DNA from: Candidatus Saccharimonadota bacterium
GTDB lineage: Archaea; Nanohalarchaeota; Nanosalinia; Nanosalinales; Nanosalinaceae
Length of the DNA: 32,000 bases
Assembly: GCA_001761425.1 (NCBI GenBank)
Contig: CP012986.1
Location: 480,001 to 512,000, forward strand
Reading direction: 5' to 3'
Shown: piece by piece, positions 3,560 through 19,205 of the stretch
Numbering within the stretch: position 1 is the first letter of the stretch
Layout of the letters: every line of letters starts with the position of its first letter
Notes under the pieces: model-generated
What the model was told of the DNA's origin: nothing
Database searches by the model: none
Seen by the model: the letters and a program-made list of their open reading frames with translations, nothing else
Translations under genes and position numbers: made by a program

Positions 3560-5023
3560 CTAGGTGAATCTTTCGAGATCGCTCTGTGGAGCACCTGCTT
3601 TCTCCAGTATATCTTCTCTGTCGTGTCTCGAACTCAGTGAGGCCTTCTTCCAAAGCTTGTCGTCCTCAAACGCAGCGTAGGCCTCTGGTGCTTTCTTCTT
3701 GAAGAATTTCCTAGCCTTCTTCGCTTCTTTACTGTAATCGAGAATAGGTTCAGGATAGTTCCTGCCGATCCTGACCCCGCATTCCTCCTGAACTTTCTCC
3801 GGCATCTTCCACGGCTCCGCAATATACTGGTCAGGAACAGGCCTTAATTCTGGAAGGTATTTCCGGATGAACTTTCCATCAGGGTCGTTGTCCTCTACCT
3901 GTTTTGTCGGATCGTAAATCCTGTTTGCGTGGACGCCGATTAAACCGCTCTGCATCTGCCACTGGTAGTAGTTTATCGCGACATCAGCGTCTATCAGGTG
4001 TTTGTAGAAGTGATCTGCCCCAATCTTCCACCATTGCTTCAAAATATAGCTGAAAAAAGAGGCACACATAGCCCGCATCCGGAAGTTCAGCCAGCCAGTT
4101 TCCCTCAGGGCACGCATCGACGCATCTACCAGTGGATAACCTGTCTCACCTTTTTTCCAGGCCTCAACTTTCTCCTCATCGAAGTTTTCCTTGTTCAGGC
4201 CTCTGTAGACAGGGTTGATCGCCTCCCTGAACAGCTTGGAGTTAGCCTCGATTTTTCTCTGGAAATGCTTCTGCCAGACAATCCTGTCCAGAAACATCTG
4301 TACGCTTTGAACGTTTTCGACCTCGTATTTCTTTTCCTCAGCTTCTTGGTAGACCTCACGCGCCGATATACAGCCGTAACGGATGTAAGGCGAGAGATGG
4401 GACGTAGAGGCCTCCGCCTTTGAAGGGGACGAGATACAGCCTGAATACTGGCCGATTCTGTCATTGAATTCCTCTAAACGGTTTAAGGCCTCATCTCTTC
4501 CGCCCCTACCGAACTTTTCCTTGTCAGACTCGATTTCGTATTTTTCTCTGATTCTGTCTATCGATACCTCTGAACTTACTGGAGGCCTTGAAAGTTTTTC
4601 TCCTGGACTGTGAGGCCTCGAGCTGAAGTATTCGCTGATTCTTTCTTTCCAGGCCTGTCTTTCAATGTTTTCTGTGGCTGGGCTCTGGCTAAAATCTCTG
4701 TATTTTTCTCTCAGAATTTTTTCTCTTTTCTGCTGGAAATGGTTGGGGTCTCGGTTGAAGAAAATACTGTGATCTTTCGAGAGTTTTTCCAGCTTTTCTT
4801 CTGGATCTCCGTGAACCAGTGTAAGATGTGTTCCGAGCTCGGTGTACTGACGGTTCAGGTCCTTCAAAGATTCCAGGACGAACTCTATCCTCTGATCCGA
4901 GACAAGATCGTTTTCAAGCCACGAAGGATCAAATATGAAGACTGGAAAGGCCTCTTCTCCTGCCTCTGAGACAGCTCTGTTGTCGTATGCTCTGAAATCG
5001 TATCTGTGGAGGACCAGGTCCAT
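3560..5023 (-). CDS. cryptochrome/photolyase family protein (FAD-binding; subclass unresolved)
   Basis: The ORF track gives 3560..5128. I place the start at Met36 (5023, MDLVLHRYDFRAYDN...) because the longer form overlaps the upstream gene by 35 nt and photolyases begin with this beta-strand. C-terminal FAD-domain motifs: GETGYPLVDASMRAL..TGWLNFRMRAMCASF, QWQMQSG, NRIYDPTKQ. It has WQKHF where class I enzymes have WREF. Confidence 0.85.
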   Translation of the reverse strand: MDLVLHRYDFRAYDNRAVSEAGEEAFPVFIFDPSWLENDLVSDQRIEFVLESLKDLNRQYTELGTHLTLVHGDPEEKLEKLSKDHSIFFNRDPNHFQQKREKILREKYRDFSQSPATENIERQAWKERISEYFSSRPHSPGEKLSRPPVSSEVSIDRIREKYEIESDKEKFGRGGRDEALNRLEEFNDRIGQYSGCISSPSKAEASTSHLSPYIRYGCISAREVYQEAEEKKYEVENVQSVQMFLDRIVWQKHFQRKIEANSKLFREAINPVYRGLNKENFDEEKVEAWKKGETGYPLVDASMRALRETGWLNFRMRAMCASFFSYILKQWWKIGADHFYKHLIDADVAINYYQWQMQSGLIGVHANRIYDPTKQVEDNDPDGKFIRKYLPELRPVPDQYIAEPWKMPEKVQEECGVRIGRNYPEPILDYSKEAKKARKFFKKKAPEAYAAFEDDKLWKKASLSSRHDREDILEKAGAPQSDLERFT

Positions 5024-5093
5024 ATCATTTAGTGTTGGTCCTACTGTTAAATTAGAGATCAGTACCGAAATTTTTGCTGTCTGTAGATAGGCC

Positions 5094-5597
5094 TCAGCTC
5101 CATTGGTTTTCCATGTTTCCGAAGGCATGGGTCAGTGATCTTTCTGTGAACTCTGGCCGGTCTATCTCTCCTTCTGTCAGCAGTGATACTGCGCCTTTTC
5201 CCTCTCTCAGATCTTCTCCCATCACTTCTACCATGACGTCGCCGAGTTCCTTCTCCTCAAGCTTCTCTGAGATCTCTTCTGGAAGCCTGGATCTACCGCT
5301 GCCACCCTCATAGAATTTCTCGCCGTCAAAGATAGTCGACCACACTGATAGAAATACTTTACCGCCTATCTCCTCGACATAGCCCTCTACACCGACTCCC
5401 AACAAGTCTTTATCTCCCGTTTTAAAGGCCTGTCTGGCTCTTTTCTCTGCACCTTTCTTCGCCTCCTCTACTGACATCGGTTGATCAGGTGCATCTACCT
5501 TGACCGACCTGATTTCATATTCGCTGTAGAATCTTTCAGCTGACTGCTTCAAGGCCTTGACTTTAGCTTTGTTCTCTGATCCCAGGACTAGTTTCAC
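5094..5597 (-). CDS. inosine/xanthosine triphosphatase (DUF84 / YjjX-family non-canonical purine NTPase)
   Basis: 167 aa, GTG start. Colinear by eye with YjjX-type proteins: N-terminal GSENKAKVKAL, PDQPMSVEEAKKGAEKRA, GVGVEGY, C-terminal KGAVSLLTEGEIDR. Confidence 0.7.
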   Translation of the reverse strand: MKLVLGSENKAKVKALKQSAERFYSEYEIRSVKVDAPDQPMSVEEAKKGAEKRARQAFKTGDKDLLGVGVEGYVEEIGGKVFLSVWSTIFDGEKFYEGGSGRSRLPEEISEKLEEKELGDVMVEVMGEDLREGKGAVSLLTEGEIDRPEFTERSLTHAFGNMENQWS

Positions 5598-8219: not shown

Positions 8220-8369
8220 ATGCCAGAGGCGGTGGAAAAACCAGAAGACAGGGATGCAGATGAACTTCTGGAAAGATTCAAGCAGTCAGCGAAGGAAGCT
8301 GTAGAAGGCAAGACCTCTAAAATAGGAGAGGTCAAAGATCGGATTGAAGGAAAGAAACAGGATCACTGA
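8220..8369 (+). CDS. possible small charged protein (49 aa), not in the ORF track
   Basis: My manual translation is MPEAVEKPEDRDADELLERFKQSAKEAVEGKTSKIGEVKDRIEGKKQDH*. Its composition fits the acidic proteome better than the Ser/Leu-rich antisense ORF 8120..8335. It converges on the 8332..8670 gene and overlaps it by 38 nt, which lowers confidence. Confidence 0.25.
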   Translation: MPEAVEKPEDRDADELLERFKQSAKEAVEGKTSKIGEVKDRIEGKKQDH

Positions 8370-8670
8370 TTTTCTTCGTCAGCTTTTTAGCCTCTTTCTT
8401 GGTCAATACCGTTAAACAGTAAATCTTGCCGTTATCTTTTTCGTCGAGATATTTTCCTTCTAGGAACCATGCTCTGAAGTCACGTCCAAGATTCATCTGC
8501 AAAACAGGATTCATATTACCGGAAAGATACTTGTCAAGCGCCTGACCTGGCGAAGCACCGATACCAAGATTCTTTTCAATAGACTCAACCTTGCTGTAAA
8601 AAGTATCTCTCACCCTGCTGGAAAATCGCTCCAAATCCTCTTCCGCAGTCTCAGTGACTTTGATTTCCAT
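8332..8670 (-). CDS. RelE/ParE-superfamily-like toxin-fold protein
   Basis: 112 aa. The N-terminus IKVTETAEEDLERFSSRVRDTFYSKVESIEKN parallels the canonical 'xxFSxxAxKDLKKLxxxxxxRIxxxIxxLxxNP' helix pair. The later LQMNLGRDFRAWFLEG...KIYCLTVLTKKEA parallels 'RxRVGDYRxIYxI...IxIxxIxHRKxxY'. Pattern-level evidence only. Confidence 0.4.
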   Translation of the reverse strand: MEIKVTETAEEDLERFSSRVRDTFYSKVESIEKNLGIGASPGQALDKYLSGNMNPVLQMNLGRDFRAWFLEGKYLDEKDNGKIYCLTVLTKKEAKKLTKKISDPVSFLQSDL

Positions 8671-8676
8671 TGATTA

Positions 8677-9345
8677 TTATTCTTCACCTTGTTCGATTTC
8701 ACTTATTCTACTTTCGAAGAATGCCTTAGCCACTGGTAGATCTTTTTCCTCTCTGACATCAAACTTGTTGCCGTCAGCATCAATGAGCCGAAGTTTTACA
8801 TCTTCAGGGGCTTCTGAAGGCGATTGAATATTCTTATTTGATGCTTCGTTTAATTCACCCGAGGACTCCTCAGTTCCTTCCGTAGTCTTTTGAGGCTCAT
8901 AATCTAACATTTCGCTGTAAAGTTTCTTTACCTTATCCGCATGATTTTTGGCCTCTCCAGGAGTGGTGTCCGCAACCTCACTGACCTTAATCCAGAAATC
9001 CTCTCCAGCAGGCTTACCTCCGGTGTACTCATATAGCTCATGTAGGAGATCAATATTCTGCAAAGCCTGAAACTTAGCTCTCCTCTCTGCCTCATCACTC
9101 TTAGGGTGGACAATATCTCTGCCGAGGTCAGTTGCCTCGTAATTATTGTCAACCAAGCCAAACTTCTTCAAATCTGCTCTCTTCTTTTTATAGGCTCCAG
9201 AATTTGCATTTTTATGCCCAATAGCTTGAGCAAAGTTCTCTTGGTTATTAATCTGGCTATTCAGCTCTTTAACAAGAATCTCAATGTTTTCAAGAGCATC
9301 ATCAAACCCATACCGAGGAAACCTAAAGTCACCGATGTTTGGCAT
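8677..9345 (-). CDS. hypothetical protein (222 aa), possible helix-turn-helix N-terminal half and acidic linker
   Basis: ATG start. It ends 7 nt upstream of the RelE-like gene, an operon-like spacing. Acidic composition. I recognise no family. The segment FAQAIGHKNANSGAYKKKRADLKKFGLVD...TDLGRDIV looks wHTH-like. Confidence 0.6.
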   Translation of the reverse strand: MPNIGDFRFPRYGFDDALENIEILVKELNSQINNQENFAQAIGHKNANSGAYKKKRADLKKFGLVDNNYEATDLGRDIVHPKSDEAERRAKFQALQNIDLLHELYEYTGGKPAGEDFWIKVSEVADTTPGEAKNHADKVKKLYSEMLDYEPQKTTEGTEESSGELNEASNKNIQSPSEAPEDVKLRLIDADGNKFDVREEKDLPVAKAFFESRISEIEQGEE

Positions 9346-9423: not shown

Positions 9424-11277
9424 CTAGACTTCCCTGAATTTCTCTAGAATAGAGGCATTCTCATCCTCCTGAGTATCCAGCGAATCGAGCACCGTCTCAA
9501 CCTCTTCCTCGTTCAAATCATAAAGGTTGAAGACGATCGCATCAATCAATTTATCGGTCTCCTGAATCTCGCTCTCTAACTCTTCAGCTTCTTCCCTGTT
9601 ATCAATGAATTTTTCCAGGCCTGATTCTACATCTTCCAGTTTTGGCAAAGTCAACTCTTCCAACCTGTCGACAACAGAGTTGGTCTTTGTAGCCGATTCT
9701 CTGAAGTTGGCGAAGCCGTCGGCCTCCTCTACAGCCAGAGAAACAAACTCCTCAATCAGAGGCTTCAACTTCTCATCAACATCGAATTTCATCACAGGCA
9801 CTGACTCGGTCTCAAAGTAACCCCACCGATCTAACTCATCCTCATCAATATTTTCACTGTCCTCAGGCTTGTAACGAGCAGAAGCCATTAAGATTAATTG
9901 GGTATTTCTCTCTTCGAACTCGACACCGCCAATCCTCAAAGAATCACGATCAGCAGAAGTATCACTCAAAACATAATCAGAAAGGCCTTCAGCTGGCGTG
10001 TAGAGATCGCCTAAAGTTTTGCCGTCGGAGTAATTTCCTAAATAGTCTTGGATATTGAGATTGATTGAGTTCAGAGATTCTTTCAGATTCAGCATATGCT
10101 CAACTTTATCCTTAATCTGTGGATCTGTTTGATCTGATAATAAGGGCAACTCGTTCATATACTGGGTTTTGAATCTAAGATAGCCTCCTCTAGCTTTAGC
10201 ACATTCTATTGAGAGATACCACTCTAATAGAGAAGAATTTAGCTGTGAGAGGTGGAAATTACTATTTGAGTCTAGGATGAATCCCGTCATATCTAGGAAG
10301 GTTCCATCATCCATTGTAAAGTTAGCGACTTTGGATATATCAGGATAAATGATTTTTTCTTCTTCAAACTTGTCATAGTAGTCGCAAGCCCTTAGTTCGT
10401 ACCATTCTAGAGAAGAGTTCTTAATGTCATACCTTTCTGCTAGAGACTCCTTATTTTCTCTTAAGTAACCAGCCACACCTGAGTAATCATTTAGGTCAAT
10501 CGGCTCTAGTTCTCCATCTTTCTTTTCATATGGGAAAAGAAGGAATTTTTCATTTTCAGGTCTGCTATATCTCTTTACTTCTTCACCTTTCAAGAATGGT
10601 CTGAAGAGATCTTTCTCATGTTCCTCATTAACTATATCCCTAATATCATCTTTATCGACGATATAGACCTCATTTAAGCCAGTTTTTATGCCAACCAGAG
10701 GTTCCCCTATTACATCGGAAAGAGGTTCTCCTTTATCTTGAACTTTATTTCGAATATCTTTTTCAGTTTCTGAGATAAATTTCCATTCCCCTGTGCCTAG
10801 TGCAGAAAGTGGGACTTCTTTGGCGAGTTCACTTACTTTCTTTGTGAGATTGTCAAATCCTAGATCCTTAAATTGAGCATATTTGAATTTATCTGCATCC
10901 AATTGCTTGGACAAAATAACTGTAGCCGGGTAAGCACTCACATCATCTCCAAATACTGGAAGATCTTGGAAGTCAATGAATTCTTCCAGCGTTGTTTCCT
11001 CCATTAGATAGTTTCTAAGAGTTTCTCCTGAATCTACTTTAGTAAATTTATGAGAGACAATATATCCGAGTTTATCAGATGCTATATAATTAGCTCTCTC
11101 AATGAAATAAGAATAGAGATCGCCTCTACCTGTGTAGACATCATAATTAAGTTCTAGATACTCTTTGAGTTCTGTGATTACTTCTTGTCTGACATATGGA
11201 GGGTTTCCTATTACTGCGTCGAAGCCAGTTGAATCGTGTGTGTGTGTGTGTGTGTGTGTATTTTTCTTTTTGCTCAA
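9424..11277 (-). CDS. type IIG restriction-modification enzyme, C-terminal fragment (MTase motif IV plus target-recognition region)
   Basis: The ORF opens at a TTG just before the repeat: (M)SKKKN-THTHTHTH-DSTGFDAVIGNPPYV. NPPY is motif IV of gamma-class N6-adenine MTases. This is followed by DLYSYFIE, GYIVSHKF, a long variable TRD-like region and the typical tail LYDLNEEEVETV. It is not an independent gene; it continues 11147..13579 in another frame. Confidence 0.85.
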   Translation of the reverse strand: MSKKKNTHTHTHTHDSTGFDAVIGNPPYVRQEVITELKEYLELNYDVYTGRGDLYSYFIERANYIASDKLGYIVSHKFTKVDSGETLRNYLMEETTLEEFIDFQDLPVFGDDVSAYPATVILSKQLDADKFKYAQFKDLGFDNLTKKVSELAKEVPLSALGTGEWKFISETEKDIRNKVQDKGEPLSDVIGEPLVGIKTGLNEVYIVDKDDIRDIVNEEHEKDLFRPFLKGEEVKRYSRPENEKFLLFPYEKKDGELEPIDLNDYSGVAGYLRENKESLAERYDIKNSSLEWYELRACDYYDKFEEEKIIYPDISKVANFTMDDGTFLDMTGFILDSNSNFHLSQLNSSLLEWYLSIECAKARGGYLRFKTQYMNELPLLSDQTDPQIKDKVEHMLNLKESLNSINLNIQDYLGNYSDGKTLGDLYTPAEGLSDYVLSDTSADRDSLRIGGVEFEERNTQLILMASARYKPEDSENIDEDELDRWGYFETESVPVMKFDVDEKLKPLIEEFVSLAVEEADGFANFRESATKTNSVVDRLEELTLPKLEDVESGLEKFIDNREEAEELESEIQETDKLIDAIVFNLYDLNEEEVETVLDSLDTQEDENASILEKFREV

Positions 11278-13579
11278 CTTTTTCTTTTAATTCGCCGAAG
11301 AATACCTGTGGGAATTCTAGCTGCCAGTGGAAGTAATTTCTGTCTTCGGCATCGGACTGGGCGTTTTTAAACCATTCTGTGTCCTCAAATGGATTTCCGG
11401 GGTTGCCGATGTTGATTAGGAAGTTCTCGTAGTCGCTGGAGTTGGCTTCTTCCGAGAAAAATTGGCGTGTGTGAATGTTGGCGAGTTGTTGGAACTGTTG
11501 GTAGAGGGTGTTGTTTGAGATGAATTTTTTGTAGGCCTGTTCTTTTTCATGGATTTGTTGGACCGTGTTTTCTGGCATCTGTTCGATTTCTAGGTACTGC
11601 CTCTGAAAGTTTTCCCTGGCTTCTTCAGGGCTGAAGTTGAAGTCTTCATTATCGAGTCTTTTCTGGTTTTCTGTTGGATGTGTGAAAATGTTGTCGAAGT
11701 TTGATCCGATTAATGAGTTGCCGTGTTTGAGGTGGTGGTCTAGGAAGTTGAGTGGTTTTCCTTCAGCCATTGTCTCGATCCAGAGGGATAATTTACCTAG
11801 CTCTACTGCGAGTGGGTTGATGTCAACTCCGTAGATGCAGTTCTGGACTACTTGTCTTTTAGCCCAATTGAGGCCTTCTTCGTCTTCTTCGATGTCTTGA
11901 TGTTTTAGAGGCACTCCGTGGTAGATTTCTTTGGCTATGCATTCTGTTGCTTCTGTAAGGAAGTGTCCTGATCCCATTGCAGGGTCGCAGACGTTTAATT
12001 CAAGTAATGAGGCGATTTTTTGGTTCTCTGCTTTTTCCTGTTCTTTTTCGTCCATCTTTTCTATTTCTTCTAGTGTTGGCTGGTCTTCAAGTTTTTCTTC
12101 GACTTTGGGCCCTACTGTGTTTTCGACTATGTATTCTACGATGTAGTCTGGTGTATAGTAGCTTCCTGTGGCTTTTCTTTCTCCTGATTCGTTTGTGAGA
12201 TAGATTCCGCCTTTCTCAACTTTTTTGTCAGCTTCTGAAAATTCTATATCTGTTTCTGAATCCTTAATCCATTCTCCTGATTTTAGGATCAAGTTTTCTT
12301 CTGCTTCCTTCAATTTGTGTTCAAGAAGGCCTTCGTAAATGCTTCCTAGGTGGCGTATGTTGAAGGATTTGTAATCTACTGTCTTGAGTTTATCTTCATC
12401 ATTTCTCAATGCAAGTAGCTTGATTATTTCCTTGACGTAATTTCCTCTAAGAGCGTTTTCTTCTAGGAAACGATTTTCTTCTCCATTTTCGGGGTCGAAA
12501 AGGCCTCCGTTGTATGGAGGTATTTCTGTGCTGTGTAGATCCTGTCCGGAGTTGACTGCTGAGAATAAGTTAGTGATTCTACTATTCCATGCTATAGTAT
12601 TTTTCTGGAGATGAACATGGTTGGGTTTATCAATTATTTTTTCCTTATACCATTTTAGGCTTAGTGCTTCGTCATAGGCTTTGTCTCCAACGGGTAAGAG
12701 GCCTCTGCTTTCAGCATTGAGTATGAATAGAAGTCTGTATAGAAGGATAAGCGAACTTTTTTGTGCCAGTTCTATGTTTTCAGGAGTTTTTTCCAGATTA
12801 TTTTCTGGAGTGTTGATAAATCCGCGTCCTGCTACTTCCAGTGCCGAATAGATCTTTTCTTTAAGGTTGTCCTCGAGTTCTTTCGAGAATTTTTCTGATC
12901 CTTCAAGGACTTTGTCTGCAAATCCTGACTCCTTTGGTAGAAAGGCTTCCTGTCGGAAAAGCAAGTAGAATAATTTGAAGTCTTCAAGTGCTTCTTCATC
13001 TTTTGGTTTCGTGATTAAATTGATCAGATCAACTTCATAGAATGTTTTTGTATCAAGGTCGTCGTAGCAGTAAAGCCTCCATTTCCTGCCGTTAGTTAGT
13101 ATTCCCCATTTAATTCTGGTTCTGTCAACATAGTTGAAAATCTGGTATTTGGGGTTAGAGTGATCTGTCTTTTCTCCGCTGTCCAGAGGCCTATCCCAAT
13201 CTTTGGCATCCGCTACAACATAACTTTCACTGAAATAATCTTTTTCGTCTGAATTCAAAATCTCTTTTTGCTGATCTTTATCTTTCAAAAAGAGATAATC
13301 TGGTTTAAGGCGCTCGCCTCCCACTGTCTTAGATTTTTCAGTTACAAAATAATGTCCAAGAATCTCTTCTAAAATTCTATCTATGAACTCTTTCTGTGTA
13401 TCGGATTCTCCCTGATCTTTTCTCAAGATTTCTTTATTTTCTTGAAATATTTCTCTTACTTCATCAAATTTTTCTTCAACTTCTGCCTCCTTCCATTCGG
13501 GTAAGTCGGGGAGTCTTTCTTCCAAGAAATGCGGTGTAAATAGATTGTTCTTATATTCACTGAGAGTTGTCTGAGCCAC
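11147..13579 (-). CDS. type IIG restriction-modification enzyme, N-terminal fragment (PD-(D/E)xK nuclease, helical region and MTase motif I)
   Basis: GTG start. Nuclease motifs: KPDYLF...VVADAKDW...GILTNGRKWRLY. MTase elements: GSYYTPDYIVEYIV, motif I VCDPAMGSGHFL, YGVDINPLAVELGKLSLWI, HGNSLIG, FHWQLEFPQVFF. After residue Tyr774 it enters the (AC)12 tract and runs 36 out-of-frame codons to a stop. Confidence 0.88.
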   Translation of the reverse strand: MAQTTLSEYKNNLFTPHFLEERLPDLPEWKEAEVEEKFDEVREIFQENKEILRKDQGESDTQKEFIDRILEEILGHYFVTEKSKTVGGERLKPDYLFLKDKDQQKEILNSDEKDYFSESYVVADAKDWDRPLDSGEKTDHSNPKYQIFNYVDRTRIKWGILTNGRKWRLYCYDDLDTKTFYEVDLINLITKPKDEEALEDFKLFYLLFRQEAFLPKESGFADKVLEGSEKFSKELEDNLKEKIYSALEVAGRGFINTPENNLEKTPENIELAQKSSLILLYRLLFILNAESRGLLPVGDKAYDEALSLKWYKEKIIDKPNHVHLQKNTIAWNSRITNLFSAVNSGQDLHSTEIPPYNGGLFDPENGEENRFLEENALRGNYVKEIIKLLALRNDEDKLKTVDYKSFNIRHLGSIYEGLLEHKLKEAEENLILKSGEWIKDSETDIEFSEADKKVEKGGIYLTNESGERKATGSYYTPDYIVEYIVENTVGPKVEEKLEDQPTLEEIEKMDEKEQEKAENQKIASLLELNVCDPAMGSGHFLTEATECIAKEIYHGVPLKHQDIEEDEEGLNWAKRQVVQNCIYGVDINPLAVELGKLSLWIETMAEGKPLNFLDHHLKHGNSLIGSNFDNIFTHPTENQKRLDNEDFNFSPEEARENFQRQYLEIEQMPENTVQQIHEKEQAYKKFISNNTLYQQFQQLANIHTRQFFSEEANSSDYENFLINIGNPGNPFEDTEWFKNAQSDAEDRNYFHWQLEFPQVFFGELKEKVEQKEKYTHTHTHTRFNWLRRSNRKPSICQTRSNHRTQRVSRT
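11236..11259 (-). repeat. (AC)12 / (GT)12 dinucleotide microsatellite inside the R-M coding sequence
   Basis: The plus strand reads gtgtgtgtgtgtgtgtgtgtgtgt (24 nt). On the coding strand it encodes alternating Thr-His. It lies between FHWQLEFPQVFF and GFDAVIGNPPY, flanked by the A-rich AAAAAGAAAAAT. Confidence 0.97.
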
Positions 13580-13675
13580 TGGAACCCCTATACAAACTAC
13601 ATTGTTAGAACTTTTTAGTAGCTTTCCAGTTCCAGTTTAGAGGAAGAGGCCTCTGGCTAGAGTTTGTAGGAAATT

Positions 13676-13915
13676 TTGAAGGCGGAAAACGAAGAGTTAG
13701 AGCTTTATTATTCTCTGTCTGATGAGGGTTGGGACGGTCGAATAGGTCATATACAGAACCATGTGCCCAGGGAACTGGAGGCCTTGGAAGAAAAAGTTTT
13801 CTACATCTGCGGAGTTCCTGCCATGGTGGTTCAAACGGAATCTTTGCTGGAGGGAGCTGGCGTAGAAGAAGAGAATATCGTGATTGAAGGCTGGGAGAAA
13901 GGCGAAGTATCCTAG
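13676..13915 (+). pseudogene. 5'-truncated remnant of a ferredoxin-NADP reductase-like (FAD/NAD(P)-binding) oxidoreductase
   Basis: The 79 codons match only the C-terminal NAD-binding end of FNR-family proteins (W.GRIGHI...VFYICGVPAMV...L...GV....I..E.W). It opens at a TTG, with an in-frame TAG at 13667-13669. About 150 N-terminal codons are missing, and the R-M gene start lies 96 nt away. Confidence 0.6.
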
Positions 13916-14043
13916 AAGTACGTTTTGAACCCTCTTTTGTAGCTATAGACTATATCGAATCTTCTGCCCGGATATTCTCTCCGGTATCCTACATTGTGAT
14001 GCTCTACCAGAATATTTTCCACGGATGTGAAGATTAGAGTCAG

Positions 14044-15456
14044 TCATAATCCTAAACTTTCTCTGAAGGCCTCAGCGTTCTCCACATGCTCCTCTACTGT
14101 TTCTTCGTTCATCCTGTTGAGTGTGGAGGTCATGAAGCTCATTCTATGGATGTCCGAAATTTTTTCTTCGTGTTTTTTGATGAAGTTCCAGTAGAGGCCG
14201 TCCCAGTGGTCTTCCCAGTCTCCTCCGTCGTAGTGACTCATTTTGTTGATGTAGTTTGAGGATGAGATGTATGGTTTGGTCATCATGTTCTCCCAGGAGT
14301 ACTGAGACATCCCGTAGATGTTCGGTACCATAACCCAGTCATAGGAATCGATAAACATCTCCATGAACCACTCGTAAACTTCATCCGGTTCAATCTCCAG
14401 CAGAAGCATCACATTACCGAGAACCATCAAACGCTCGATGTGATGGCAGTAAGCATCATCTAGAGCGTGTTGAATAGAATCATCTACAGGTGGAAGGCCT
14501 GTCTCACCGGTGTAAAATTCTTCGGGTAATTCGTTATCAGCGTCCCAGAAATTCGCCTCTCGCATCTCCGGCTCCAGCTCGTACATCGCCCTGATAAATT
14601 CTCGCCAGCCAATAATCTGACGCAAAAAACCTTCCAAAGAATTCATAGGATAATCATTTTCTTCATGGGCCTCCAGAGTTTTTTCAACCACTTCTTCAGG
14701 AGTGATCAAGCCGATGTTTATCGAAGAGGAGAGCAGTGAGTGGAAACCAAACTTTAGGCCTGAGTCGATCGCATCCTGGTAATCGCCAAAGTTTTCCAGT
14801 CTATTTTCCAGAAAGTCCTCCAAATTTTCTAAGGCCTGTTCACGGGTTACAGGCCAGAAAAAATCTTCCAGCTTCCCAGGATTCTCTGGAAAGTTTTCCT
14901 CGATGTATTCTCTGGCTTCTTCGACATGTTTGGATGAAAACTGCGGGATCTCGGGTTTTTCCATGTCCTCTGGCATTTTCTTCCTGTTTTCCGGGTCAAA
15001 GCTCCATTTACCGCCTTCAGGTTTTCCCTCTTCATCGATGAGGACGTTGAACTTCTTCCGCATCTGTTTGTAGTAGTTTAGTTGGAAGTACTCGTGGCTC
15101 TGGAAGTATTCCTCGTTGAAATCCATGGATGCCATGAATCCAGGATTTTCCTCAAAAAATAGTTCTGTATCGTGTTTTTCCGCCAGGCCTTGAAGTTGGT
15201 TCCGGACCTTGTGGTCTACTGGATCGTAGATCCTGATCTTGTCTTCTTTTTTGAAGATCTGGGCTATATCCTCATCGTATTCCAGGTATTCTACATCAAA
15301 TCTTTCGCTGTAGGCCTTCATTGAGGCTCTATGTAGGATCAGCTTCTTTTTGTGGAAGTTGAAGTCTGTGAAGTATCTGGAATGTTCTACCAGGTATTTT
15401 TTGTCTTCTTTTACTGGTTCTGGGAAGAGCTGGTTTGGGAGGATTATGGATGCCAT
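14044..15456 (-). CDS. cryptochrome/photolyase family protein of the FeS-BCP / bacterial (6-4) photolyase-related clade (COG3046-like)
   Basis: 470 aa. N-terminus ILPNQLF...YFTDFNFHKKKLILHRASMKAY. C-terminal region HHIERLMVLGN, DSYDWVMVPNIYGMSQY, KPYISSSNYINKMS, LYWNFI. These are all characteristic of the PhrB/CryB-type family. Confidence 0.8.
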   Translation of the reverse strand: MASIILPNQLFPEPVKEDKKYLVEHSRYFTDFNFHKKKLILHRASMKAYSERFDVEYLEYDEDIAQIFKKEDKIRIYDPVDHKVRNQLQGLAEKHDTELFFEENPGFMASMDFNEEYFQSHEYFQLNYYKQMRKKFNVLIDEEGKPEGGKWSFDPENRKKMPEDMEKPEIPQFSSKHVEEAREYIEENFPENPGKLEDFFWPVTREQALENLEDFLENRLENFGDYQDAIDSGLKFGFHSLLSSSINIGLITPEEVVEKTLEAHEENDYPMNSLEGFLRQIIGWREFIRAMYELEPEMREANFWDADNELPEEFYTGETGLPPVDDSIQHALDDAYCHHIERLMVLGNVMLLLEIEPDEVYEWFMEMFIDSYDWVMVPNIYGMSQYSWENMMTKPYISSSNYINKMSHYDGGDWEDHWDGLYWNFIKKHEEKISDIHRMSFMTSTLNRMNEETVEEHVENAEAFRESLGL

Positions 15457-16295: not shown

Positions 16296-17651
16296 CTATC
16301 TTCCCAGTGCGTTTTCAAACATTTTTTTACCGACGTGATATCTCTGGTTGAAGTTGATTATTGGATCAGGATAATCCAGATCATACTTGTTTCTCTCTTC
16401 CTGGCTCATCTCAACCCAGTTATGGATTGAATCCGGGTCAAGGCCTCTTAGCTCGGGAATCCAGTGCTTGATGTATTCTGCTTCGCTGTCGTACTTTCTA
16501 CCCTGTTTGACCGGATTAAATATTCTGATGGAAACTGAGTCAGTTCCTGTTGAGGCTGCCCACTGCCACCCTCCGATGTTCGAGGCTGTGTCATGATCCA
16601 CAAGGTGTTTACGGAAAAACCTGGCACCTTCCCTCCAGTCGATCATCAGGTGTTTGGTCAGGAAAGATGCGACGTTTTGCCGGGTCCTGTTGTGCATATA
16701 ACCAGACTCAAGTAACTCCCTCATCCCTGCGTCTACAAACGGAACACCGGTCCTTCCCTCTTTCCAGGCCTCTAGCTCCTCCTGACTGTTCTGCCACTCT
16801 ACAGCGTTTTCAAAATTCCTGTAATTTTCCTCTACAGTCCCGGGATTATGCCAAAGCACCTGGTAGAAAAACTCTCTCCACGCAAGTTCGTTCCTGTACT
16901 TCGCATAGTTCCTGATCCTGGAAGAATCCTCATCTCTGTCAATCAGGTTCTCCACGTCTTCGAGAACCTTTCTCAGGCCTAACATACCGGAGCTGTAATA
17001 CATGGAAAGCCTTGAGACCGAGTTAGGCCTTGCGATTTCGTCTCTTCTGTCCCTGTACTTTTCCAGCCGGTTATCTCTGAAATCCTTCCATCTCTTCAGC
17101 CCGGCTTCTTCGCCTGCTTCAGGTATGTCGGCGGAGGCCTCTTTTCCAGGTATTTTTTCTGATATTTCCGGGTTTTCAGCAAAGTTTTCAGGCCTTTCCG
17201 CAGGTTTACTTTTTTTGATTTTCTTCCATTCTCTGTAGAAAGGTGAGAAGGTTCCGTATTCTTTCGAGAGCTCTCCAGGTTCCACGAGCAGTCTGTCCTG
17301 GAATCCGTGTGTCTCAACGTCTAGCTCTTCGATTTCTGCCTCTATCTTTCTCTTTAGAGGTGTGTAGCTTCTGTTGTAGAATATTTTTTCTACATTGTTT
17401 TCCCCGATAATTTTTTCCAGTTCCCCTTTGGTCTTCCCTTTTCTGTAATGCAGCTGAGATCTATTCCTCCTGTACCTGCTGTCCAGCTGCTTTAAACCTT
17501 TTTTTCTGAAGGCCTTTTTGTTCCGCCCCGTATTTTTTCTGATGCGAGGGTCGTCGATGTAGACCGGAACTGTTTCGCCGTTTTCTGAGGCCTTTTTCAG
17601 GCCTCTGTTGTCGTGGGTTCTGAGGTCGTCTCTGTGTAGGAAGATGTTCAT
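16296..17651 (-). CDS. phr: deoxyribodipyrimidine (CPD) photolyase, class I-like
   Basis: 451 aa. N-terminus IFLHRDDLRTHDN. C-terminal region LAWREFFYQVLWHNP, GRTGVPFVDAGMREL..SGYMHNRTRQNVASFL, GGWQWAASTGTD, IRIFNPVKQ. Confidence 0.9.
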   Translation of the reverse strand: MNIFLHRDDLRTHDNRGLKKASENGETVPVYIDDPRIRKNTGRNKKAFRKKGLKQLDSRYRRNRSQLHYRKGKTKGELEKIIGENNVEKIFYNRSYTPLKRKIEAEIEELDVETHGFQDRLLVEPGELSKEYGTFSPFYREWKKIKKSKPAERPENFAENPEISEKIPGKEASADIPEAGEEAGLKRWKDFRDNRLEKYRDRRDEIARPNSVSRLSMYYSSGMLGLRKVLEDVENLIDRDEDSSRIRNYAKYRNELAWREFFYQVLWHNPGTVEENYRNFENAVEWQNSQEELEAWKEGRTGVPFVDAGMRELLESGYMHNRTRQNVASFLTKHLMIDWREGARFFRKHLVDHDTASNIGGWQWAASTGTDSVSIRIFNPVKQGRKYDSEAEYIKHWIPELRGLDPDSIHNWVEMSQEERNKYDLDYPDPIINFNQRYHVGKKMFENALGR

Positions 17652-17814
17652 CTTTTTTCTCTTTTTGTGATTGCAACGGAGTTGGAGGTAGTCAGGACCA
17701 GTTAAGTTAGATGCCTTTCTATGGATAAACTGGCAGTGCTCAAGAATTTAACTGTTTTGATAACTCTCTGTAGGCCTTGAGTTTTATCAATCGGGAGTTT
17801 TCAAACTCTTGTTA

Positions 17815-19205
17815 ATGAGCAGACTGCTTTTGAAGAATCTTTCTGTAGTTTCTGGAACTGGCGAGGTTGTAGAAGAGACATCTGTAGTTATTGAAGATGA
17901 TAGAATAGTGGGGATCGGGGTGGAGGATGGTTCATCTTTTGATACTGTGGTCGATTGTGAAGGCCTTGTCGCTATCCCTGGAATGGTTAACAGTCATTCG
18001 CATATGGAGTTGAGCAGTGCTGAGGAGATCTTTCTTGACCAGTCTTCTAGAGAGATTTTATTCGAGCTTTTCCCTGTTGTACAGAGTATCTGGGATAGTG
18101 GAAGGGAAGACTTGATCAGTTCGGGTTATCGTTATGCTTGTTACAGTTTTCTGAGAAACGGTATAACGACTGTTAACACTCTTGATGATCATCCTGAAAC
18201 CGGGATTGATATCGTCGGCGAGTCCGGGATGAGAGCGGTGATGGGTTTTTCTCCAGGCGACCTGTTTCTGAATGCGGATGCTGAGGAGATAATCGAGCGG
18301 GAAAGAAAATTCATTGAGAACTACAGCGGCGCTTATGAAGGAAGAATCACGCCGAGCGTAAGCTGTCAGGGCGATCTCTACTGCTCACAGGAACTATGGA
18401 AAGGAGTAAGCGAACTGAGTGAGGAGTATCCGGAGCTTCCGTTCCACACTCTGTACTGGAGATGCCGGAATCCAACCAGATGCCTCAGGCACACGGCTTC
18501 AAGGGCACAGTAGATCTGCTGGAAAGCAAAGACCTTCTCGGAGAAGACTCCGTACTCGCACACTTCACCCACGCAGATAAAAAGCAGCTGGAAAAAATAG
18601 AAGAAACCGGTACAGGCCTTGCACACTGTCCATCAATCCTTGCCTACGACTTCAACGGTGTATGGCCAAATGTAGATACAGCAGACAAGGAAAACATCAG
18701 TACAGGCCTTGGAATAGATGACCACTACCTGATAGAATCAGAAAATCTTTTTCAGGAGGCCAGAAAAGCAAAGGAAAAACTGGAAGACGAGAAAAACTAC
18801 AGGATCAGCTACAAAGGCCTTTTCAGGAAAATGACGAGCGAGGCAGCTGAAGCAGTAGGCCTCGGAGATGAGATCGGAAGTATAGAGAAAGGGAAGAAAG
18901 CAGACATCGTACTCCTAAACTTGGAAATCGATTTTGAAGGAAATGTCTACAGGCAGATAATAGAGAACGCAGATGAGGAAAATATCCAGGAAGTCTTTGT
19001 AGACGGCGAACAGGTAGTAAAAGATGGAGAAGTAACAACTATGAATAGAGACGAAGTTCTGGAGGAGAAGGAACAGGTGAAGCAGGAGTTCCGCGAGGAA
19101 CTGGATAAGAGATTCTTCAAAACACGGATGTTGTTCAAAACACTGAGGATAATCGACTACAGAACACTGAAACTGATTCCGTACAAACTCAGAAACCTTT
19201 TCTAA
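17815..19205 (+). pseudogene. amidohydrolase-superfamily deaminase (MtaD/chlorohydrolase-like) disrupted by a 1-nt frameshift
   Basis: Two overlapping ORFs (17809..18513 and 18462..19205) carry consecutive parts of one protein. The first has PGMVNSHSHMEL (HxH). The second has VLAHFTH, GLAHCPS, KADIVLL. The probable start is the ATG at 17815. Inserting one base between 18451 and 18452 yields ...LPFHTHVLEMPESNQ... and a single ~463-codon frame. Confidence 0.8.

Follow-up and report, generated by a model that had tools for sequence, protein, structure and literature searches.

Phase variation of restriction-modification (R-M) genes driven by simple sequence repeats (SSRs) is a textbook strategy of host-adapted bacteria. 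In Campylobacter jejuni NCTC11168, cj0031 (cj0031/cj0032) encodes a 1243-aa type IIG enzyme and contains a polyG9 tract two thirds into the gene; in its ON state the enzyme methylates DNA and restricts phage, the tract is present in only some alleles, and the target-recognition domains (TRDs) are variable (PMC4889913). Dinucleotide repeats occur in methyltransferase genes of Mycoplasma, where MmyCI mod is OFF with (AG)12 and ON with (AG)10 (PMC3498834), and where the type III mod gene mod1 of M. bovis carries an (AG)n tract (bioRxiv 10.64898/2026.04.01.715767). SSR-controlled type III and type I methyltransferases of Haemophilus, Neisseria, Helicobacter, and others constitute phasevarions (PMC5909438, PMC7383803). 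Here, we describe a 32,000-nt stretch of the genome of Nanohaloarchaea archaeon SG9 (contig CP012986.1, positions 480,001 to 512,000; hereafter, the window), in which a gene for a predicted type IIG R-M enzyme is split into two open reading frames (ORFs) by a perfect (AC)12 tract. The gene is likely an SSR contingency locus, i.e., a type IIG R-M gene of a nanohaloarchaeon that is switched ON and OFF by slipped-strand mispairing.

The mechanism is of a kind known from bacteria, and the novelty is taxonomic: its occurrence in Archaea. The original prediction for this locus had supposed that phase variation of archaeal R-M systems was not established, and our search of the literature on archaeal or DPANN phase variation indeed found no described SSR-driven phase-variable R-M gene. 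The REBASE surveys consulted, which cover SSRs of type III and type I systems, contain no mention of archaea; they describe long dinucleotide tracts as very rare, with more than five units in only 6/4490 type I dinucleotide cases. A phase-variation review from 2025 named archaeal distribution as future work (PMC11868660), and the only "archaeal" citation for contingency loci that we traced was a 1987 hybridization study of simple repeats. SSR phase variation of R-M genes in Archaea is essentially undocumented.

The tract and the enzyme it interrupts

The repeat is a perfect (GT)12 run on the plus strand at 11236-11259 (100% matches; Tandem Repeats Finder score, 48), which corresponds to (AC)12 on the coding minus strand. 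It thus forms the perfect 24-nt dinucleotide repeat within coding sequence that had been predicted, and all numerical statements of that prediction were reproduced. The tract is flanked by FHWQLEFPQVFF and GFDAVIGNPPY, which places it, as claimed, between a conserved block and catalytic motif IV of a nuclease-methyltransferase-TRD enzyme. No comparable AC run was obtained in dinucleotide-preserving shuffles of the 32-kb window, in which the tract is the sole simple repeat of at least 10 nt. It is also the sole di- to hexanucleotide repeat of at least five units in 173.6 kb of tract-bearing or related nanohaloarchaeal loci. The features of the gene, in window positions, are as follows.

9424..13579, minus strand: whole type IIG R-M gene, 4156 nt at 12 units and 1385 aa at 13 units; predicted domain order, nuclease, helical region, gamma-class N6-adenine methyltransferase, TaqI-like TRD, conserved C-terminal domain
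13202..13303, minus strand: PD-(D/E)xK nuclease motif, P93-D94 ... D124-A125-K126, from an alignment of 37 homologues
11957..11986, minus strand: S-adenosylmethionine (AdoMet)-binding motif I (DPAMGSGHFL), columns invariant or nearly so in 40 sequences
11147..13579, minus strand: upstream ORF, the OFF-state product of 810 aa, with nuclease, helical region, N-terminal methyltransferase half (motif I), and 29 out-of-frame codons at its end
11227..11296, minus strand: expanded linker GELKEKVEQKEKY(TH)nDST, an A-rich Lys/Glu-coding stretch plus the tract in place of a 4-residue linker
11236..11259, minus strand: (AC)12 hypermutable tract coding for alternating Thr-His, codons 774-782 of the 1385-codon gene
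9424..11277, minus strand: downstream ORF of 617 aa (TTG start at 11275-11277), with the tract, motif IV (NPPY), C-terminal methyltransferase half, TRD, and conserved C-terminal 216 aa
11194..11226, minus strand: GFDAVIGNPPY, catalytic motif IV, opening with the nucleotide block GGCTTCGACGCAGTAATAGGAAACCCTCC

The AC unit of 2 nt is not a multiple of 3, and it lies inside the reading frame. In the window allele, the upstream ORF (100% identical to NCBI AQV86_02595 of Nanohaloarchaea archaeon SG9) continues after Tyr774 with the alternating Thr-His sequence THTHTHT and 29 out-of-frame codons. It therefore ends 36 codons past Tyr774, exactly as had been counted before; the downstream ORF begins MSKKKNTHTHTHTHDSTGFDAVIGNPPY. 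To test the frame, the gene was rebuilt in silico with other AC unit numbers. With 7, 10, 13, and 16 units, a single ORF of 1381, 1383, 1385, and 1387 aa, respectively, was obtained without any other stop, while stops were encountered at 788 aa with 11 units, at 790 aa with 14, and at 810 aa with 12. The 12 units of the window allele are out of frame, and 13 or 10 units are in frame and fuse both ORFs into the expected frame of ∼1385 codons.

Pfam analysis of the 13-unit protein identified Eco57I (5.1e-36), N6_Mtase, MmeI_Mtase, and TaqI_C. The latter match (PF12950, 1.1e-8, above cut-off) marks the target-recognition domain, for which sequence and structure matches to M.BseCI, CamA, and M.TaqI were also found. 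PADLOC REase_MTase_IIG models matched the 13-unit protein as well, with PDLC03613 covering residues 10-759 at 2.8e-58. Across the 37 aligned sequences, D94 and K126 of the nuclease motif never varied, and the conservation of P93 and A125 was at least 90%. An AlphaFold2 (AF2) model of residues 1-460 had a predicted local distance difference test score (pLDDT) of 88, and Foldseek with the nuclease-region model returned DrdV as the best match, followed by restriction-endonuclease-fold proteins, with weak E-values of 0.01-0.1. The model of residues 441-1180 matched CamA (2.5e-24), M.BseCI, BREX PglX, BpuSI, MmeI, and M.TaqI. At 12 units, motifs I and IV are located on separate ORFs; a single chain carries both of them at 13 units, as it does in P0243 and P0246, two natural alleles described below.

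Membership in two multigene defense systems was considered and rejected. The best PADLOC match was DISARM DrmMI (3.2e-99, residues 454-1148), and yet no Drm partner genes are nearby; for BREX (PglX), the NCBIfam BREX_1_MTaseX score was 126.9 versus a cut-off of 500, and Brx partners are likewise missing from the vicinity. DrmA/B/C and BrxA/B/C/Z/L were looked for among the neighbor genes and none was found, the neighbors being photolyases, OsmC, a nitroreductase, a glycosylase, and two small genes without known family. Because such partner genes are absent nearby and the PglX score is far under its cut-off, we read the gene as a predicted stand-alone single-chain type IIG R-M enzyme.

The tract resides in an insertion immediately before motif IV. 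Close homologues without the tract (∼40) have exactly 4 linker residues (GQQE, GQTQ, or similar) between FHWQLEFPxVFF and GFDAVxGNPPY, compared to 24 residues in the window gene. In the model of the in-frame protein, the inserted segment had a pLDDT of 33-47 with better-predicted flanks on either side, and it is predicted to be a flexible, disordered surface loop. This agrees with the earlier view of the insertion as accommodated in a normally short loop rather than as random damage.

Length polymorphism and integrity of the gene

Length variants were searched for by listing the members of 90% identity protein clusters, and the corresponding DNA was then compared by blastn. Four protein clusters with the Thr-His tract were present among the 120 best homologues; the representative of each is cut short at the tract. 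In total, the insertion with a perfect tract is common to five nanohaloarchaeal lineages and ranges from 5 to 15 units. The alleles are listed below, where W is the window allele, L001-L007 are related tract-bearing contigs, and each allele is an assembly consensus.

W (window, SG9): 12 units, out of frame
L001: 14 units, out of frame
L002, syntenic with the window: 14 units, out of frame
L003 (Nanohaloarchaea SW_7_43_1): 8 units, out of frame
L004 (P0241; Logan assembly of SRR2630167, protein otherwise identical to SG9): 14 units, other out-of-frame phase
L005 (P0243, JGI; L002 lineage): 15 units, in frame, 1226 aa
L006 (P0246, ENA; SW_7_43_1 lineage): 9 units, in frame, 1398 aa
L007 (P0247): 5 units, out of frame

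The tract was the only, or nearly the only, polymorphism between the contigs of three pairs. W and L004 were aligned with 0 mismatches in 20,896 bp, L003 and L006 with 0 mismatches in 22,468 bp, and L002 and L005 with 8 mismatches in 12,629 bp; each alignment had one gap, which was the tract (12 versus 14, 8 versus 9, and 14 versus 15 units, respectively). The tract-length polymorphism at orthologous loci that had been proposed as a check was thus seen in these pairs, and lengths of 14 and 5 units in two further lineages add to it. In-frame alleles, as expected under switching, were found as well (P0243 and P0246), so that two of the eight alleles were ON and six OFF. W and L004 bracket the in-frame length of 13 units. 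A 1-nt frameshift outside any repeat, in the neighboring amidohydrolase gene, is the same in these two assemblies, whereas the tract differs.

Alternatively, there could be one true in-frame length and an intact gene, with all other lengths generated by stutter or de Bruijn graph errors during sequencing and assembly. Dinucleotide repeats do stutter in Illumina libraries based on the polymerase chain reaction (PCR), the two 0-mismatch pairs may share reads, and the genome of SG9 ("Ca. Nanopetramus SG9," from Atacama halite) had only ∼20x Illumina coverage and was re-assembled by hand (bioRxiv 10.1101/029934). However, six of the eight assemblies, from at least four pipelines (IDBA-UD, Logan, MEGAHIT-style ENA, and JGI), would need to be wrong, including those with tracts of 10 bp and 16 bp, which are well under read and k-mer length. 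Moreover, W and L004 are two units apart, and since contigs are built from k-mers present in reads, both lengths occur in the read data. We consider such an artifact very improbable.

Apart from the tract, the gene was intact throughout. Each of the eight alleles either is a single intact ORF or becomes one when one unit is changed (1226-1416 aa). Extra inactivating mutations, which the original prediction had named as the mark of a plain pseudogene, were checked for, and no second lesion was present in any of the eight. The ratio of nonsynonymous to synonymous divergence (dN/dS) in the upstream half was 0.06 between L006 and L007 (dS, 0.70), 0.11 between L001 and L005, and 0.19 between W and L001; in the core region it was 0.09-0.11 among W, L001, and L005, and in the C-terminal domain, downstream of the tract, 0.09-0.13 among W, L001, and L006. 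As judged from these ratios, the gene halves on both sides of the tract are under purifying selection, which is not the pattern of a decaying pseudogene. A frameshift that merely happened to fall into the microsatellite of a degenerating defense gene would fit the out-of-frame state of the window allele and most others, and further broken SG9 genes are located nearby (amidohydrolase, ∼18451; oxidoreductase remnant, 13676-13915). It is nevertheless highly unlikely given the lack of a second lesion in 8/8 alleles, the existence of in-frame alleles, a dN/dS of 0.06-0.19 (dS, 0.4-1.2) in the sequences flanking the tract on either side, and the retention of a perfect tract in five lineages.

The in-frame alleles also bear on the idea that each ORF is translated by itself and that the two products combine into an active enzyme. 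The downstream ORF does have a candidate start codon immediately 5' of the tract, which is TTG in W, L001, and L002 and GTG in L003. This start is not conserved, however, as L003 has CTG at the TTG site and its GTG elsewhere. With their overlap of 131 nt, the ORFs are not arranged for coupling, and the break lies within the catalytic domain, where it separates motifs I-III from motif IV. Together with the in-frame fused alleles and ∼50 single-chain relatives, this makes a functional split gene extremely unlikely.

The phase of the OFF alleles deserves separate consideration. Five of the six out-of-frame alleles (5, 8, 12, 14, and 14 units), from four lineages with differing flank lengths, are in the same phase, one unit short of the in-frame length. 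This could reflect recoding, in which the one-unit-short tract is a functional design and -2/+1 ribosomal frameshifting or RNA-polymerase slippage (+1 AC) results in low, tunable expression; on an AC repeat, tRNAs could re-pair perfectly 2 nt back. A precedent is the leaky, frame-dependent suppression at (AG)n tracts of the mod gene of Mycoplasma bovis (bioRxiv 10.64898/2026.04.01.715767). A fixed programmed frameshift was considered when the first four alleles shared one phase, but was downgraded upon finding the in-frame and opposite-phase alleles: the shifted arrangement is not fixed if otherwise identical alleles are in frame (L005 and L006) or in the opposite phase (L004). There is also no conserved stop or slow codon after the tract, and conservation ends ∼45 nt downstream of it, leaving little space for a conserved stimulatory structure. 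The phase bias itself is not significant (binomial p ∼0.2) and is compatible with a contraction bias. Recoding in place of switching is improbable, but leaky suppression could coexist with switching at the DNA level.

In summary, length variants, ON alleles, intact ORFs, and low dN/dS argue against a plain pseudogene, a fixed recoding site, and an invariant intact gene, and the length polymorphism, the in-frame alleles, the lack of a second lesion, and purifying selection support the phase variation that had been proposed. Several observations weigh against it. All alleles are assembly consensuses. At least two of the three pairs, those aligned for more than 20 kb with 0 mismatches, may each go back to one set of reads that was assembled twice; their differences would then reflect heterogeneity inside a sample, or a choice made by the assembler, and not separate populations. 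Within the SG9 lineage, no in-frame allele was found; the shared phase of five of the six OFF alleles (not significant, as stated above) might point to something besides free switching; and the tract-bearing subclade is small, as the more than 50 nanohaloarchaeal homologues include just 4 protein clusters of this kind. On balance, we regard slipped-strand ON/OFF switching as the probable explanation. The tract and its frame arithmetic, its conservation in five lineages, the length differences, the ON alleles, the lack of other lesions, and the purifying selection are observed; slippage as the cause of the length differences, reversibility, a high switching rate, enzymatic activity, and adaptive value are inferred.

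Under this proposal, the subclade would have gained an insertion of ∼60-70 bp in the short loop before motif IV, ending in a perfect (AC)n. Slipped-strand mispairing at replication would add or remove AC units and, because the unit is 2 nt, shift the downstream half with NPPY and TRD in or out of frame. At in-frame lengths (13 units in SG9), the complete enzyme would be made, including a disordered (Thr-His)n loop; at other lengths, the product would be a truncated protein without catalytic motif and DNA-recognition domain. Since nuclease and methyltransferase share one chain, restriction and methylation would be gained and lost together. A population would then be a mix of ON and OFF cells, with the window allele representing an OFF state one unit short of ON, and the benefit might lie in balancing virus defense against its cost or against DNA uptake.

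Mosaic alleles, distribution of the tract, and genomic neighborhood

The alleles are mosaics of conserved and divergent segments. Their N-terminal parts are 50-66% identical, and W, L001, and L005 share 91-93% identity in the core (residues 560-772). Right after NPPY, identity falls from ∼90% to 22-30% (W 9424-11190 versus L001, L005, L006, and L007), while the last 216 residues, a conserved C-terminal domain without Pfam match, are again 83-89% identical between alleles. The target-recognition region has been swapped between alleles just past NPPY.

The sequence following the tract is unusually uniform. The 29-nt block GGCTTCGACGCAGTAATAGGAAACCCTCC (11198-11226, minus strand) is 100% nucleotide-identical in all five tract-bearing lineages, where nearby synonymous divergence is 0.4-1.2, and the tract-less relative L014 differs from it at 6 synonymous sites. 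The identical block suggests either a recent spread of the tract cassette or constraint at the nucleotide level. The A-rich insertion is shared by all members of the tract-bearing subclade. By sequence comparison, these features point to a single origin of the tract, with later spread by descent or recombination.

Beyond the subclade, 16 further related loci were recovered by protein-based scans of genome and metagenome contigs; none had a tract or other simple repeat, and their readable linkers were 4-9 aa long. A homologue search with a query of 310 aa spanning the tract retrieved short proteins only, none of them tract-bearing, and one with the 810-aa ORF yielded no new tract-bearing cluster. 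The DNA pattern GAGCAAAAAGAA N19-49 GGCTTCGACGCAGTAAT had no match in genome, metagenome, and viral contig collections. As the pattern does match the window and L001-L003, these collections apparently do not hold the relevant contigs.

A more far-reaching reading would combine these observations into a portable (AC)n cassette, consisting of the tract and its nucleotide-identical flanks, which sits at the boundary with the swapped TRD where the similarity of alleles collapses. Because of this placement at the TRD-swap boundary, the cassette might have moved between divergent alleles by recombination, so that ON/OFF switching would be coupled to specificity shuffling. Nanohaloarchaea would use the cassette for bet-hedging of the R-M enzyme, which would produce methylome heterogeneity at the population level (an archaeal "phasevarion") and adjust virus defense against DNA traffic with the haloarchaeal host. 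We put this forward as a speculative and rather doubtful extension.

The host is archaeal, as GatD/GatE and a thermosome are encoded near the R-M gene. Nanohaloarchaea are DPANN ectosymbionts with genomes of ∼1 Mb. The G+C content is 37-42% across the R-M gene (10001-14000) versus 45-50% in the flanking housekeeping genes, which is consistent with horizontal acquisition of the R-M islet. Further features in its surroundings are the following.

8332..9345, minus strand: two small genes (222 aa and 112 aa) without Pfam or PADLOC match, directly downstream of the R-M gene
13676..13915, plus strand: 79-aa ORF, remnant of an NAD_binding_1 oxidoreductase (PF00175, 9.6e-6)
3560..5128, 14044..15456, and 16296..17651, minus strand: three photolyase/cryptochrome-family genes around the R-M islet
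17809..19205, plus strand: amidohydrolase, two overlapping ORFs resulting from a 1-nt deletion around 18451

The two small genes are specific to the SG9 lineage (present in L004, absent from the syntenic L002 and L005), and whether they are part of the R-M system is uncertain. In L001, L003, and L006, the R-M gene has a neighbor coding for a 222-aa NTP_transf_2 protein, accompanied in L001 by a HEPN partner. At the place of the 79-aa remnant, the syntenic L002 contains an intact 230-aa FAD/NAD-binding gene, for which reason the R-M islet appears to be rearranged in the SG9 lineage. The amidohydrolase deletion (CACACTC-TGTAC versus CACACTCATGTAC in the intact 458-aa gene of the syntenic L002) is not at a repeat; because it is the same in the window and in the independent Logan assembly L004, it is probably a real, ordinary frameshift. 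The photolyases, together with an HhH-GPD glycosylase and OsmC, form a dense light and oxidative damage repair cluster in this 1.1-Mb genome. Scans for sigma-70 promoters and terminators gave counts at shuffle level; the sigma-70 model is not applicable to archaea.

Comparison with described systems

Natural ON and OFF alleles in public assemblies make the locus a concrete, testable case from a DPANN symbiont of halite and saltern habitats, and related nanohaloarchaea exist in co-culture. If confirmed, it would extend bet-hedging of defense or methylation to archaea and to nonpathogenic life in extreme environments. It also serves as a warning for annotation: an archaeal R-M gene that looks "split" in a metagenome-assembled genome may be switchable and not dead.

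In its architecture, the predicted enzyme resembles DrdV (7lo5), MmeI (5hr4), and BpuSI (3s1s), which have a PD-(D/E)xK nuclease, helical connector, gamma-class methyltransferase, and TRD in the same order. Identities in structural alignments are low (11-14%), however, and the match of the nuclease domain is weak (E ∼0.01). These three enzymes are without a repeat tract, and the nanohaloarchaeal gene has an additional conserved C-terminal domain of ∼216 aa. DISARM DrmMI and BREX PglX share the Eco57I-type methyltransferase core, and PglX was among the structural matches; in contrast to them, the nanohaloarchaeal protein has an N-terminal nuclease domain and no Drm or Brx partners nearby.

With respect to the proposed mechanism, the locus is comparable to phasevarions, in which slipped-strand switching of an N6-adenine methyltransferase results in a population-heterogeneous methylome. 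A regulatory role of phasevarions has been demonstrated in the bacteria concerned. The mod genes of Mycoplasma share with it a long perfect dinucleotide repeat in the methyltransferase coding region, which is out of frame at 12 units and in frame at 10, and also the small genomes and host-associated life of their carriers. They differ in being bacterial, in the repeat unit (AG instead of AC), and in being type III: Mod and Res are distinct subunits there, and Mod can therefore act alone as an epigenetic regulator.

The closest known case is Cj0031. It is bacterial, has a poly-G of 9, and was tested experimentally, while the nanohaloarchaeal gene comes from a DPANN host, has (AC)5-15 in a loop beside motif IV, and is known from comparative evidence. 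Like cj0031, the nanohaloarchaeal gene would, when in frame, encode a single-chain type IIG enzyme of ∼1250-1400 aa. Each gene has an intragenic repeat, located between its middle and its distal part, which leads to two annotated ORFs when out of frame; in each, only some alleles contain the tract, and the TRD region varies strongly from allele to allele.

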